Of a DNA stretch of 64,000 nucleotides, positions 18,001 through 60,286 are shown piece after piece; the stretch's first letter is position 1, and the number at the start of each line of letters is the position of its first letter. This DNA comes from Candidatus Omnitrophota bacterium (GTDB lineage Bacteria; Omnitrophota; Gorgyraeia; Gygaellales; Profunditerraquicolaceae): positions 140,756 through 204,755 of the forward strand of contig JAQUOV010000003.1 of the NCBI GenBank assembly GCA_028716965.1, given 5' to 3'. Both the position numbers and the translations under genes were made by a program. The notes beneath the pieces were generated by a model. The model searched no databases. It was given only the letters and a program-made list of their open reading frames with translations, and was not told where the DNA came from.

Positions 18001-21000
18001 TAAACTCTAAGTAGAATACCCTTTCCTTAATTGCCCCTCTTGCTGCCTTGGGAGCGCATTCCATAGCATCCTCAAAATTAACGCTAGCCTCTTCGTATTC
18101 ACCAAGAGCCCACAAAGCTTCTCCGTTTTCACGGAATATATGATAGGTATCCTTCTTAAAAAAGTTCAATTTCCTTATATACCTACTAAGCCTTATCGCT
18201 GCATAGAATGCTCCGGTTGCTTCCTTATAATTGCCATTACGCAGATATGCTGTTCCTAAGCGATATAAAGCTAACCTGCTATTGGGGTTCAATACAGTTA
18301 TCTTGCTATAAAGGGCTATGGCCTGCTCAACTTTTGTCTTCCTCTCCTCGTCGTTATCCGCCTTCTGCTCTTCTTCTTCGGTTTTACCCGCTATCCTCCA
18401 AGCTGCACCTTCCAAAGCCTTCCTTACTTTATCGAAAGCTCTTCTATCTAAATAACCGCCTAAGGAGAACGCGTTCAAAAATGTATATGGCCTGAGTTCT
18501 TTCCTTAGCGCTTCTATATCTGCTTCCGCTGCTCTCAACTCATCTAATGTCTTCGCCTCTTTTAAGCTGTTGATAACCCCATAGGCTTTTTGCCTGAAAG
18601 TTAGCGGTTTAGGCACCTCTGGAGATTTTTCCTCTGCCGCTTCTTCTGCAGGAGCCTTCAAATCGCCTTTATCCTCCTCTGTTTCTGCCTTTGTTTTCCT
18701 TGCTTTAATAATCCTGATTACTCCAAGAATACCTAACCCAATAACCGCCCCTGTAATTACAATAAGGCTGATTGTGACGGCTGTCTCGGAGAATCCGGTT
18801 AACTGGCTTATATAACGAATATTCTTAGTGGCCCAGGATACCTTCTGACCATCAGGAGATTTTACCTGTTCAGATTGCTTGATTTCCTTTTTGCTATCGG
18901 TTGGTTTCTTGGGTTGCTCTGCTTCTTTCTTCTCTATTTTAGGTACGGGTTTTTGCTCAACCGGCTTAGTTTTTTCTTCTGGCGCAGTCAGTTTTTGCTT
19001 ACCTGCATAAATCTTCTGTTGAGGATATATGAGGTCGGGATCCTTTATATTATTATCACTGGCCAGCTTTCCTACGCCTTCGGGATATAGGGCTTTGTAG
19101 TCGTATATGCCTAATGCCTTGGCATCAACTGCAATGCCGCTAAGCGTATTCTCGGCAGGCCTATCCGACCTCCAGTTCTTCGTGGCCACTACATAGTGCC
19201 CCTCTTCATTATGGAATTTATGCCCATATTTCGGCCCGACAAGGGAATCTTTATTTAACGGCCCTTGCTTTGCTGCTTCTTTGGCTGAATCTTTAGCAGG
19301 AAACTTTGCTTTTATTTCTTTAGGTGCGGGTAACTCTTTGGGTTGCTGCTTAAAGGCTGATTTATTGCTATCTGCATTCTTATCAGTTGCCGGATTTGGT
19401 TTAGTCTTATTACCGGCAGGCATGCCGACAGCTTTATATTTCTTGCCATCTGCTTTAAAATCCCAATGCAGCGCTTCAGGAGAAGGACGGCTATCACGAG
19501 CTTCTTTGCTTATCTTATCTAATTTACCTGTGGTATCTTGTTTAAAACTGGATTCTCCTACGTTCATCCCCCCATCTACCGCTGCTATTGCGGGGTTTAC
19601 GCCATAAGCAATAGCCGCTACTGAAACCCCTATTAATGCCGTAAGCACGGGATGGCGCCTAAACCAGCCAAATATACCTGAACCTTCACTTATTTCAATC
19701 TCTGAATTTACTCTATCTAAATATAACTCAGGGAATGCTTTTTCGTGGGCGTCTTCAAAACCTGTGGCTTCAACCGCTATTTCTTTTCCAGAAGGATCCT
19801 CAAGAATCCAAGTTTCGGTAGCTTTTGAATACTCTATGCTGCTTTCAGGCGGACCACGGCGATAATGTGCTTCCGTGTTTTGAATACCAAAATTAATCTC
19901 TCTACCCGCATCAATGGATACTGCTCTATCGGAATTCAATCCTGTGTTATTATATATAACTCCCAGAGGGCTTGACCCTCCGCAATTGCCGCCGTCTCCG
20001 GCGCCTGTTGCCCCGGTTGCGCCGCCGCCCTGTGAACCGCCGCCGGTTGAACCTGCGCCTGCTCCACCTTGCGCGCCACCGGTTGATCCGCCGCCTTGGG
20101 CCCCACCGCCAAGCTGACCAACCTCCATTCCCTCCATCTCTTCTTCACTTAGCTCAACTTCTGTATCAAAATACTTGTCCTTAATCACTTTTTCTGTAAC
20201 TATAGTTACTCTCCCCGATGCGTCAGTTATCTCTGAAATATGAACCTTAAGTAATCTCCTTTCACCATTATCGTTATCAGAATAGCCATACACATAATCT
20301 CCCTCAATTCTTTCAAATCTAAAGAGATGCCAAATCCCTCCTTTAGTTTTATATACGATAAATACCTTGTTAGAGATCAACTCGGCACGGTCCCTTAATG
20401 TGTCCGCGCTAATCCTGAATGCAGTCAAAATGACCCCTGTTACCTCTTTGACCACTTTTATAAAGTCGCTTAACCTCACCAGATAAGAACCGCTAAACTT
20501 TTTAAGCCATATTCTGAAATGATCGTTTACTTTTTCTTTTTGACCCTCATCTTCTAAAATAGTACCCACTGCACAGTTACCTATAGCCTTAAATTCACGA
20601 ACCAATTGCTTCATTGCTTCAATGCGATACGCCTCTCTCTCGGTATAGCTAATTGAATCCCAGTCCTCTCCGGCATCCCGGGACAACTGCCTACCTCTTT
20701 CTTCAATCATCTCCTTTGTAATATAATCGCCGCCTCTGGTAACAAACCATTGTAAGTGTTCAACTTTCCTGGCTTCTTGTCCTAACCTTGTCTTTAGTTC
20801 TCCTACTTCTCCTTTTAGTTCTCCTACTTCTCCTTTTAGTTCTCCTACTTCTCCTTTTAGTTCTCCTACTTCTCCTTTTAGTTCTCCTACTTCTCCTTTT
20901 AGTTCTCCTAATGTTTCACCTTGTTCTTCTATGGCTTCACCTTGCTCTTTTATGGCTTCTTTTATTTCTCCTATTGCCTGGCGTTGCGCCTCTACCTCTT

Positions 21001-40798: not shown

Positions 40799-41081
40799 TA
40801 CCTAATGGTATAGAAAACAAAAAAAGTCTTCCCCTTACCCCAGCAGATACTTTCATAATCTTGGCTTTATTTAAGGACATTGTTTTTATTTATTAAAAAG
40901 TTTCTAAAACTTCTTAATAAGATATTAAATAAAAATCCGAGTTGTCAAATATCCTTATTTCCCTTCGACATTCGGCAGCCCGGCTATCCTTTACTTCTGC
41001 TTTTTTAATTTTGGATCCGTGGCTTTGCGCCCCCCGATTACTCGGAGTTTACCTTTTCGTTACTTAACTCTTTACGTTCAA

Positions 41082-41110: not shown

Positions 41111-41314
41111 GTAAAAATTGCCCTAAAAAAGGTAGCGCTTTCTTATGATAAGATTCTATAACCCATATACAATTGAAGTACTTTCTAGCCTACAAGAAAT
41201 AGAACTTGTTTGCTAGGTAATAAACAAAAAATTAGAGTCTAGGATAAAAGCTTTAAGTTGATATCAAACCAAAAATGTCAATTTTATTAATTATTTGATG
41301 AGGATTAAATAAGC

Positions 41315-41372
41315 GGGGACAGTTCTCCGATTGGCTCAAGAAACGTCCTTGCTTTAGGGTCAGAAACGTCCC
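41315..41372 (+). repeat. REP-like element copy A
   Basis: About 85% identical to 53541..53598 and to the reverse complement of 52933..52990. Internal GGGAC/GTCCC and AGAAACGTCC sub-repeats. Confidence 0.8.
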
Positions 41373-41445
41373 TTTTTTAGGCTAGATTGGACATTAATTT
41401 GTAGGTTATCTGATAAATTTAACAGATTGGACATTAATTCTATGA

Positions 41446-52844: not shown

Positions 52845-52932
52845 ATTTTCTCCAGATTGGACATTATTAGCCAATATTAATGTACAATAAAATAGTCAAT
52901 ATGTCAACAATAATTCAGTTTGGACATTATTA

Positions 52933-52990
52933 GGGACGCTTTTGCACCTAAAGCAGGGACGTTTCTTAGCCTAATCGGAAAACTGTCCCC
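52933..52990 (-). repeat. REP-like element copy B (inverted relative to A and C)
   Basis: Reverse complement GGGGACAGTTTTCCGATTAGGCTAAGAAACGTCCCTGCTTTAGGTGCAAAAGCGTCCC matches copies A and C. Confidence 0.8.
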
Positions 52991-53057
52991 CCCCCTCCAG
53001 GAATATTTTGTTAGATTTTATTATATTGCAGCGTCTATTATAGCGGAGGTGATAAAT

Positions 53058-53540
53058 ATGCCAAGAAGTGCAAGATTAATTCTAGATAACGCATGCTATC
53101 ATTTGATGGCACGAGGGAATCAAAGACAATATACTTTTATTGAAGATGAAGATTTCAATAAATACCTTGAGCTATTAAAACATTATAAAAACAAGTATTA
53201 TTTTAAACTGTATGGTTATTGCTTAATGCCAAACCATGTGCATTTAATAGTAGAGCTTAATAAATCATCTATACTGGGAAAGATTATGCAAGGACTGAAC
53301 TTAGCATATACAATCTGGTTCAACAAAAAATATAATAAAGTGGGCCATCTCTGGCAGGGAAGATATAAGAGTAAGCTGATTCAAAAGAATAAATACTTGT
53401 TAGATTGCATAGAATATGTGGAGTTTAATCCAATAAGATCAAATATGTGGAAATCTCCTTTTGACCATCCTTGGAGCAGCTGGAAAGAACGCATGGGATA
53501 TAAAGAAAACAGCCTCGTAGATACTCCTAACTTAAGCTAA
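53058..53540 (+). CDS. REP-associated tyrosine transposase (RAYT, IS200-like Y1 HuH transposase)
   Basis: HuH motif LMPNHVHLIVE; catalytic Tyr region WQGRYKSKLI; GGAGGTGA Shine-Dalgarno 6 nt before ATG 53058 (track start 52920 is an over-extension); flanked by inverted REP copies B and C. Confidence 0.85.
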   Translation: MPRSARLILDNACYHLMARGNQRQYTFIEDEDFNKYLELLKHYKNKYYFKLYGYCLMPNHVHLIVELNKSSILGKIMQGLNLAYTIWFNKKYNKVGHLWQGRYKSKLIQKNKYLLDCIEYVEFNPIRSNMWKSPFDHPWSSWKERMGYKENSLVDTPNLS

Positions 53541-53598
53541 GGGGACACTTCTCCGATTGGGTAGGGAAGCGTCCCTGCTTTGGGTTCAGAAACGTCCC
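53541..53598 (+). repeat. REP-like element copy C
   Basis: GGGGACACTTCTCCGATTGGGTAGGGAAGCGTCCCTGCTTTGGGTTCAGAAACGTCCC, immediately after the RAYT stop codon. Confidence 0.8.
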
Positions 53599-53942
53599 TA
53601 ATCTATTAAGGTGATGTGGTCGCCTGTTTGGGTAGAGGTTCTTTCCAGGGTTCCTGCGGGAAGTTCAATACTAAATAGCGCGTTTAAATAAATACCGCTT
53701 ATCCTAAACGGCCGCATACTGCGGATCTCCCTTGTAATTCTGTTATTGGAATCAACAAAGATTACGTCTATGGCAAATTGCATAAAGAAAGTGTGGATTG
53801 AATTACAGGGTTTGATTATTAAAGCTTGTCCTTGTTTAAGCTCCCTGCGGTTTAACAAGCCAACCATCCTTCTTAACGGAGTTTTGGCAATAGCCGCATC
53901 CTCTGCTAAGCTTGTACCGCGGTCTTTGTTGATTATTTTCAT
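53598..53942 (-). CDS. DUF192-family protein
   Basis: HTFFMQFAIDVIFVD matches the DUF192 core; the ATG overlaps the TGA of the upstream ATPase gene (ATGA). Confidence 0.65.
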   Translation of the reverse strand: MKIINKDRGTSLAEDAAIAKTPLRRMVGLLNRRELKQGQALIIKPCNSIHTFFMQFAIDVIFVDSNNRITREIRSMRPFRISGIYLNALFSIELPAGTLERTSTQTGDHITLID

Positions 53943-59798: not shown

Positions 59799-59924
59799 CA
59801 ACCCTCCTTATTGTTTTACTTGTATCATAAAGTAATTAAAAAAGCAAGAAAAATAATTACGGGTATCTTTATTATCATCAGTACCTTCATACTGAAGGAT
59901 TAATTACGAATCTTATTGCCCCCT

Positions 59925-60108
59925 CCAACCGGCCCTCCTGCGGAGGACTCGGTTGAAAACTTTAATAGCCCCAACCGGCCCTCCTGCGGAGGACTCGGTT
60001 GAAAACTTTAATAGCCCCAACCGGCCCTCCTGCGGAGGACTCGGTTGAAAACTTTAATAGCCCCAACCGGCCCTCCTGCGGAGGACTCGGTTGAAAACTT
60101 TAATAGCC
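59925..60108. repeat. Four perfect tandem 46-bp repeats (ccaaccggccctcctgcggaggactcggttgaaaactttaatagcc) abutting the tRNA 3' end
   Basis: Copies at 59925, 59971, 60017 and 60063. Each starts with ccaaccgg (the tRNA 3' acceptor/T-arm bases) and carries the palindrome CCTCCtgcGGAGG. Confidence 0.9.
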
Positions 60109-60178
60109 CCAACCGGATTTGAACCGGTGTTTACAGGCTGAGAACCTGACGTCCTGGACCAGGCTAGACGATGGGGCC
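60104..60178 (-). tRNA. tRNA-Glu (anticodon CUC)
   Basis: Minus-strand GGCCCCATCGTCTAGCCTGGTCCAGGACGTCAGGTTCTCAGCCTGTAAACACCGGTTCAAATCCGGTTGGGGCTA. D-arm and T-arm (TTCAAAT) very similar to bacterial tRNA-Glu; anticodon loop TTCTCAG. G1-U72 wobble and a 27:43 mismatch lower the score. Confidence 0.75.
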
Positions 60179-60286
60179 GTGAAATTAAACAAAGTTATAC
60201 ATTCGCTGCCAATGGCGCTCTCCGGTTTTTAAGCCGGGGAACCGTAGTTGATTTTACTATATCCGCGCCTTTAGTCAACAATTTTA

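Follow-up and report, generated by a model that had tools for sequence, protein, structure and literature searches.

The tRNA-Glu(CUC) gene in the window, the whole 64,000-nt stretch of Omnitrophota DNA analysed here, is followed by four perfect 46-nt repeats. These are probably copies of a conserved trailer hairpin of this tRNA, amplified by slippage or unequal recombination, rather than the scar of a mobile element. The feature is real but modest. Its parts and the other features of the window are listed in Table 1.

Table 1. Coordinates of the tRNA-Glu(CUC) repeat array and of other features in the window.
Feature	Coordinates	Strand	Basis
tRNA-Glu(CUC) gene	60104–60178	minus	ARAGORN; Rfam RF00005, 54.2 bits
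Whole tandem array, four complete 46-nt units and a terminal 8-nt partial	59925–60116	minus	TRF, exact matches
Unit 1: first 13 nt (60104–60116) are the tRNA 3′ end, next 33 nt the native trailer with hairpin	60071–60116	minus	
Unit 2: copy of the tRNA 3′ end (60058–60070) and hairpin trailer	60025–60070	minus	exact matches
Unit 3	59979–60024	minus	exact matches
Unit 4	59933–59978	minus	exact matches
Terminal partial copy CCGGTTGG, the 3′ arm of the last hairpin	59925–59932	minus	
Four hairpins (overall 59926–60093)	60064–60093, 60018–60047, 59972–60001, 59926–59955	minus	folding, pattern search
Promoter-like TTGACT-16-TAAAAT upstream of tRNA-Glu	60251–60278	minus	
Leader insert (~45–55 nt) between conserved promoter and tRNA, with a hairpin at 60223–60244	60179–60245		
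Unique spacer from array to first Tad-pilus operon gene (94-aa ORF, start ~59801)	59801–59924	minus	
RAYT-like Y1 transposase gene	52920–53540	plus	PF01797, E 5e-18; NCBIfam REP_Tyr_transpos 73 bits, cut-off 80
Inverted REP pair in the RAYT flanks	52930–52965 and 53560–53601		motif GGGACG(C/T)TT
Second REP doublet	41313–41375		GGGACG motif at 41340–41375
c-di-GMP-I-GGC riboswitch	40970–41062	minus	62.7 bits, above Rfam gathering score
Giant stop-free frame, running off the window start	2–40801	minus	
Perfect 21-nt tandem repeat inside the giant ORF	20793–20959		5.6 copies, 100% identity
Response-regulator/GGDEF ORF, 325 aa	62953–63930	plus	

The tRNA-Glu(CUC) gene is the sole tRNA gene that ARAGORN and Rfam find within the 64-kb window. 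It does not encode CCA, its position 1-72 is a G-U pair and its discriminator is A. On the tRNA strand, its 3′ end reads ...CCGGTTCAAATCCGGTTGGGGCTA, continues into TTAAAGTTTTCAACCGAGTCCTCCGCAGGAGGG and is followed by CCGGTTGGGGCTA again. The array as a whole is CCGGTTGGGGCTA plus TTAAAGTTTTCAACCGAGTCCTCCGCAGGAGGG four times over and then the partial CCGGTTGG, beyond which the sequence diverges to the unique AGGGGGCAATAAG.... Each 46-nt unit comprises the last 13 nt of tRNA-Glu, that is, the T-stem 3′ strand, the acceptor 3′ strand and the discriminator, and 33 nt of trailer; unit 1 overlaps the tRNA gene, whose own 3′ end supplies its 13-mer. The repeats sit 3′ of tRNA-Glu in its own orientation, towards lower window coordinates. 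TRF reports a period of 46 and 4.2 copies (4.17) with 100% matches and a score of 384. ARAGORN, Rfam, TRF and exact matching thus agree on the four perfect 46-bp repeats, each restarting with the tRNA-Glu 3′ end, that the initial annotation had described. In an exact search of the window, the 13-mer and the 33-mer each occur four times, with no other credible copy in the 64 kb, and the 33-mer is found in none of 100 shuffles. The array does not have the organization of a CRISPR array, as the whole 46-nt period is identical and spacers are absent, and no ORF of at least 40 aa in the window ORF list overlaps it.

Upstream of the tRNA, the block TTGTTGACTAAAGG...TATAGTAAAAT in the promoter region is conserved in all relatives. 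The genes downstream on the same strand encode a small membrane ORF, a PPIase, CpaB/RcpC, a secretin, a CpaE/F-type ATPase, and TadB/C-like and TadE/G-like proteins, which together form a Tad pilus operon, and the spacer block TTTCTCTTGCTTTTTTAATT.CTTTATGATA.AAGTAAAACAA between array and operon is kept in pilus-linked relatives. A divergent cluster of FIST, histidine kinase and response-regulator/GGDEF genes lies upstream. Starting at a GTG, the response-regulator/GGDEF ORF shares 38 nt with the end of the histidine kinase gene. In the relatives, the corresponding genes encode 311 aa and begin a few nt beyond the kinase gene; judged from these sequences, the window gene probably starts further downstream than at this GTG. 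Near 60 kb, gene orientation and GC skew are both reversed. A replication origin at this position was considered and rejected, the DnaA-box-like 9-mers not being clustered in the tRNA intergenic region.

Each unit carries a hairpin, CAACCG(A)GUCCUCC-GCA-GGAGGGCCGGUUG, with a stem of 13 bp and one bulged A. The palindrome CCTCC-tgc-GGAGG noted earlier is present, though it is merely the tip of this longer stem. Within the window, the hairpin pattern has no match outside the array. The folding energy of a single unit is -23.9 kcal/mol (z -3.9) for the sense strand vs -17.1 kcal/mol for the antisense strand. The 5′ arm, CAACCG(G), is complementary to the T-stem/acceptor junction of tRNA-Glu (CCGGTTG), and the 3′ arm (CCGGTTG...) therefore repeats this junction, so that a quasi-palindrome is flanked by two short direct repeats, the tRNA end and the hairpin end, which lie ~46 nt from each other. 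Two other readings of the unit were discarded: as a decayed copy of the T-arm, since MAFFT aligns it convincingly with the tRNA over no more than the terminal 13–17 nt, and as an anti-SD/SD resemblance of CCUCC and GGAGG in the window unit, which other module types do not have.

Loci of Omnitrophota relatives were gathered through homologues of the FIST protein (up to 92% identical), which also place the organism of the window in Candidatus Omnitrophota. Every relative with a native trailer carries a hairpin module directly 3′ of tRNA-Glu, and pattern searches find the module nowhere else in each of these loci. A single module is found in L011 (FIST identity 92%), where it reads CAACCGAGTCCTGCAGC-GCA-GCTGCGGGGCCGGTTG and then GGGCTA, in L015, L016 and L017 (84%), where it reads CAACCGGTACCC-GCA-GGGGACGAGGTTG and then GGGCTA, and in L027 (80%), which has a different downstream gene. 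L014 and L018 (84%) have two and a half diverged modules. The single module of L028 and L029 (78%) has a covarying outer stem, CTAACCG...CGGTTAG, and that of L023 and L024 (71%) has a 3′ arm repeating only GGTTGG. In these two most distant lineages, the hairpin is kept and the GGGGCUA tail is lost, the tail reading CCGGTTAGTGTT in L028 and GGTTGGATTAG in L023. The Tad pilus operon is syntenic downstream of the tRNA in L011, L014 and L015, and the module stays with tRNA-Glu where the downstream gene is instead STT3-like (L028 and L029) or radical-SAM (L023 and L024). Two loci differ: L013 (88%) diverges after ...CTATTAA and its contig then ends, and in L019 (77%) the module is absent and an Xre-HTH/Fic pair abuts the tRNA end. 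The tRNA-Leu(GAG) genes of L011 and L013 have no comparable reiteration, which is thus not general to tRNAs in these loci. Rfam covariance models, even at E ≤ 1, matched only the tRNA in the window and eight relative loci.

Several further observations concern the edges of the tRNA in these loci. The Xre-HTH and Fic/DOC genes of L019 (1100–1603) start directly at the tRNA 3′ end, after ...GGGGCTA, and the HTH ORF as called extends over the end of the tRNA. Among the contig ends of L020, L021, L022, L012, L025 and L026, three, in assemblies of different samples, fall exactly at ...GGTTGGGGCTA and others inside the tRNA; such breaks could reflect either strain-variable DNA or branching of the de Bruijn graph at the identical tRNA of co-occurring relatives. 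The 5′ side of tRNA-Glu is also rearranged in several lineages. In L013 (97–230, minus strand), a duplicated TTTTTTGGCCCCATCGTCT flanks ~105 nt that include a D-arm fragment, in L028 to L030 TTTTTTGGCCCCATC and a ~55-nt insert precede the intact tRNA, and the window has the leader insert given in Table 1. The 5′ insertions of L013 and L028, with their TGATGAG...GAA strings, match no ribozyme or other Rfam family.

The modules appear to be constrained at the level of RNA. The sense strand folds better in all nine module variants, by 2.4–16 kcal/mol, and these variants contain two to five G·U pairs on the sense strand vs none or one on the antisense strand. In a structural alignment of seven distinct modules, standard pairs occupy 98 of 100 cells on the sense strand vs 81 on the antisense strand. 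Changes on both sides of a pair are seen in four of 17 pairs (e.g. CAACCG/CGGTTG to CTAACCG/CGGTTAG in L028), and one-sided changes in four more, a count that comprises only seven sequences in an alignment built by hand to fit the structure, because MAFFT placed the two bulge geometries out of register. Going by these sequences, sense-strand pairing and compensatory changes would not be expected of a decaying recombination scar.

The number of modules is one, one, one and 2.5 in the relatives and four (4.17 copies) in the window. Within a lineage it is constant across samples (L015, L016 and L017 being equal, as are L014 and L018), which shows that the array is not hypervariable. Two classes of module can be told apart. 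The class with a 5′ bulged A (CAACCGAG...GGCCGGTTG) occurs in the window, L011, L028 and the second module of L014, and the class with a 3′ bulge (CAACCGG...NNGGTTG) in L015, L027, L023 and the first module of L014. Both are scattered over the neighbour-joining tree of the FIST proteins, ((((L014,L015),(L013,(L011,window))),L027),(L028,L019)),L023, and they coexist in L014, which suggests an old array that has gained and lost modules. On the simplest reading of these sequences, an old array of at least two modules would have undergone loss and expansion via the repeated tRNA-end segment. Alternatively, modules may have been exchanged between co-occurring relatives, anchored on the conserved tRNA. 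The four perfect copies in the window indicate a recent amplification event and are a recent expansion of one module class.

The mechanism of this amplification would be slippage or unequal crossing-over. As short direct repeats on either side of a quasi-palindrome, the tRNA end and the hairpin 3′ arm would provide a classic substrate for slipped-strand mispairing or unequal recombination, by which the 46-nt interval would have been amplified to four perfect copies in the window genome, while the same process would have added, removed or kept modules in the relatives. Such a process predicts a number of full units followed by a terminal partial copy at the short repeat, which matches the observed array; the terminal CCGGTTGG would be the distal short direct repeat foreseen by the slippage model. 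The suggestion that the repeats are a minisatellite has held up: perfect units follow one another head-to-tail, the last copy is partial, and relatives carry different numbers of modules. These properties are shared with VNTRs that arise through slipped-strand mispairing, including hairpin units and a terminal partial copy at a short repeat. The array differs from them in that its unit, rather than being anonymous, is a conserved part of the tRNA trailer, seeded by the 3′ end of the tRNA, and in that its copy number is stable across samples of one lineage.

For the hairpin itself, a role in forming the 3′ end of the tRNA transcript is presumed, as a stop, a pause or a block to exonucleases, which would insulate the co-directional pilus operon; the extra copies would then be a near-neutral by-product. 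The proposal that the units are a tandem terminator array is borne out only in part. Each unit does have a strong hairpin on the sense strand (-23.9 kcal/mol), but the stem is followed by GGGCUAUUAAAG, or by GAGGGGGCAAUAAG after the last unit, with no U-tract, and a consensus terminator scan does not call it. A U-tract is likewise absent after the hairpin in all lineages compared, and the hairpin is therefore not a canonical intrinsic terminator. With intrinsic terminators it shares a GC-rich stem on the transcribed strand right after a tRNA gene and, being repeated, it is comparable to the tandem terminators found after stable-RNA genes; it differs from them in lacking both the U-tract and the consensus call.

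Slippage alone does not regenerate the most distal copy of the repeat, so the conservation of GGTTGGGGCTA is not fully explained by it. This segment is perfect (11–16 nt) in the distal copy of five lineages despite the diverged interior of the hairpin, which hints at selection or gene conversion acting on a mimic of the tRNA end. It is possible, if unlikely, that the modules are a selected functional RNA array, in which the hairpin and its GGGGCUA tail mimic the tRNA 3′ end. RNase Z or an RNase E/Y-like enzyme would then cut the reiterated A|UUAA junctions of the tRNA-Glu primary transcript and release stable 46-nt hairpin RNAs, or the modules would provide graded termination or attenuation before the pilus operon, with copy number as the dose. 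Consistent with this, the perfect copy of the tRNA end in the five lineages includes the UUAA after the discriminator while the stem interior has diverged, a covarying structure forms specifically on the sense strand, and the module array seems older than the split of the lineages. The trailer repeat of E. coli tyrT/tyrV, moreover, overlaps the annotated small RNA rttR, and the window unit can be extended to an 18-bp helix that leaves a single, discriminator-like 3′ A. This extended helix is, however, not conserved in the relatives, and L023 and L028 keep the hairpin without the GGGGCUA tail, which makes the mimic dispensable for the role of the hairpin. One module also suffices in most lineages, and no Rfam family is matched. 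The fuller version of this proposal is quite improbable: that the hairpin together with GGGGCUA|UUAA is a selected mimic of the tRNA 3′ end, from which maturation enzymes would release stable hairpin RNAs of ~46 nt, or which would set graded read-through into the Tad pilus genes. The array would then constitute a family of small RNAs from the trailer, long-lived in Omnitrophota and tunable in dose.

It is very unlikely that, in an array that is itself real, the copy number or the perfection was created by a short-read de Bruijn graph looping with a 46-nt period. At 192 nt, the perfect array exceeds usual k-mers and is comparable to the read length, so that its copy number depends on the assembly method of the source, and several related contigs break at or near tRNA-Glu. 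Independent assemblies of relatives nevertheless resolve between one and 2.5 modules, and do so reproducibly among L015, L016 and L017 and between L014 and L018. In the window, unique sequence flanks the array on both sides within one contig, and the unit boundaries fit a biologically sensible repeat.

The 3′ ends of tRNA genes are classic att sites, and the repeats had been interpreted as a reiterated att core left by integrase activity. This interpretation, in which repeated integrations or tiny CIME-like remnants left the reiterated tRNA 3′ ends as att scars and the hairpin arms are core-binding sites of a recombinase, is highly improbable. In its favour, the direct repeat reaches just past the tRNA (GGTTGGGGCTATTAA) in L015, L027 and L014, L019 and L013 change sequence at about that point, and three assemblies stop exactly at the tRNA 3′ end. 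As in tRNA att sites and CIME accretion arrays, there are direct repeats of the tRNA 3′ end downstream of the gene, where the neighbourhood of some relatives changes. No integrase or phage gene, however, was found with Pfam and PHROGs among the ORFs from 41.4 to 64 kb, nor any in two 3,000-aa samples of the giant ORF of at least 13,600 codons, and none of the fetched relative loci contains a tyrosine or serine recombinase. A distant attR is also missing: with up to two mismatches, there is no second correctly oriented 13-mer in the 60 kb downstream, and the two extra matches, at chance level, are either in the wrong orientation or upstream of the tRNA. The base composition of the window is free of anomalies and of any compositional island.

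The search for an attP partner gave a similar result. Viral contigs contained no match to the hairpin pattern or to the tRNA 3′-end pattern. BLAST against phages and plasmids, collections that may lack Omnitrophota elements, matched only whole tRNA-Glu genes and never the repeat part. A scan of genomes and metagenomes with CCTCCNNNGGAGGGCCGGTTGG returned only 10 chance matches, in contigs of 57–75% GC without similarity in their flanks. The supposed element between the repeats would measure merely 29–39 nt and carry no cargo, and the interval is a covarying hairpin of RNA type, with compensatory changes and sense-strand G·U pairs that a decaying scar would lack. The HTH gene of L019 abuts the tRNA end and, as called, overlaps it, which resembles a rearrangement rather than a clean att junction, and the contig breaks are equally explained by the identical tRNA of co-occurring relatives. 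Together with the syntenic downstream operon, these results lend no support, within the limits of the window, to the tRNA-end reiteration as an integration scar or the mark of a genomic island. With neither an integrase nor an attR found within those limits, the att interpretation is refuted there by the condition that the initial annotation had set for it.

The only transposase-like gene found in the window is the RAYT-like gene, which lies 6.5 kb from the array, on the opposite strand, inside the pilus gene region and in a low-GC patch. The second REP doublet is located between the end of the pilus operon and the riboswitch. RAYTs act on DNA hairpins, and the trailer hairpins share with REP/RAYT systems a short palindromic unit and a RAYT-like gene in the window, but there is next to no chance that they are REP-like elements spread by such a Y1 transposase, given that the REP motif in the flanks of the RAYT gene, GGGACG(C/T)TT, has nothing in common with CAACCG...CGGTTG, a disparity that rules out the link, that the trailer hairpin is not dispersed but found only at the tRNA in the window and in every relative locus, that in relatives the module accompanies the tRNA through several different gene neighbourhoods, and that no RAYT was called in the fetched relative loci, which reach only ~5 kb from the tRNA.

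The remainder of the window is largely occupied by the giant stop-free frame of at least 13,600 codons, with a domain resembling peptidase C39 close to its N-terminus and TPR repeats in the middle of the protein. The c-di-GMP-I-GGC riboswitch lies immediately upstream, and judging by its sequence the frame seems to be a giant gene of Omnitrophota controlled by a c-di-GMP riboswitch. Frame and riboswitch adjoin the Tad pilus operon and the FIST, histidine kinase and GGDEF cluster. The 21-nt tandem repeat inside the frame is followed by diverged copies and, its period being a multiple of three and in frame, would encode a 7-residue peptide repeat.

A trailer hairpin of tRNA-Glu(CUC) amplified from the tRNA end has a counterpart in E. 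coli, where a trailer repeat of tyrT/tyrV is said to have been described by Egan and Landy in 1978. As re-verified in the K-12 record, the tyrV trailer contains 3.1 copies (3.14) of a 178-bp unit with 95% identity. Its units restart with the last 19 nt of tRNA-Tyr, the array ends in a partial copy, and the tyrT/tyrV trailer overlaps the annotated rttR small RNA and tpr. The design is the same in both, a tandem repeat that starts inside a tRNA gene, whose units restart with the terminal nucleotides of the tRNA (19 in E. coli, 13 here) and which closes with a partial copy made of the tRNA-end segment. The two differ in tRNA, phylum and sequence, and the Omnitrophota unit is 46 nt long, 100% identical and made up of a single hairpin, against 178 nt and 95% identity in E. 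coli. A side-by-side reading of the units reveals no sequence in common beyond the shared principle, and the likeness is an analogy of design, not homology or membership of one family. A literature search returned nothing pertinent.

The reiteration of the tRNA-Glu end does not mark a genomic island, and a false lead is thereby removed. The tyrT-type architecture is rarely noted, and the array adds to it a second, independent case, here with the seeding repeat directly visible. The trailer hairpin is a conserved and previously uncatalogued element, specific to tRNA-Glu(CUC) in an uncultivated phylum, that can be modelled and searched for. It bears on how the transcripts of tRNAs without an encoded CCA end in bacteria without obvious hairpin-plus-U terminators. 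Should selection act on the mimic of the tRNA end, the modules would represent a new kind of trailer-derived RNA.
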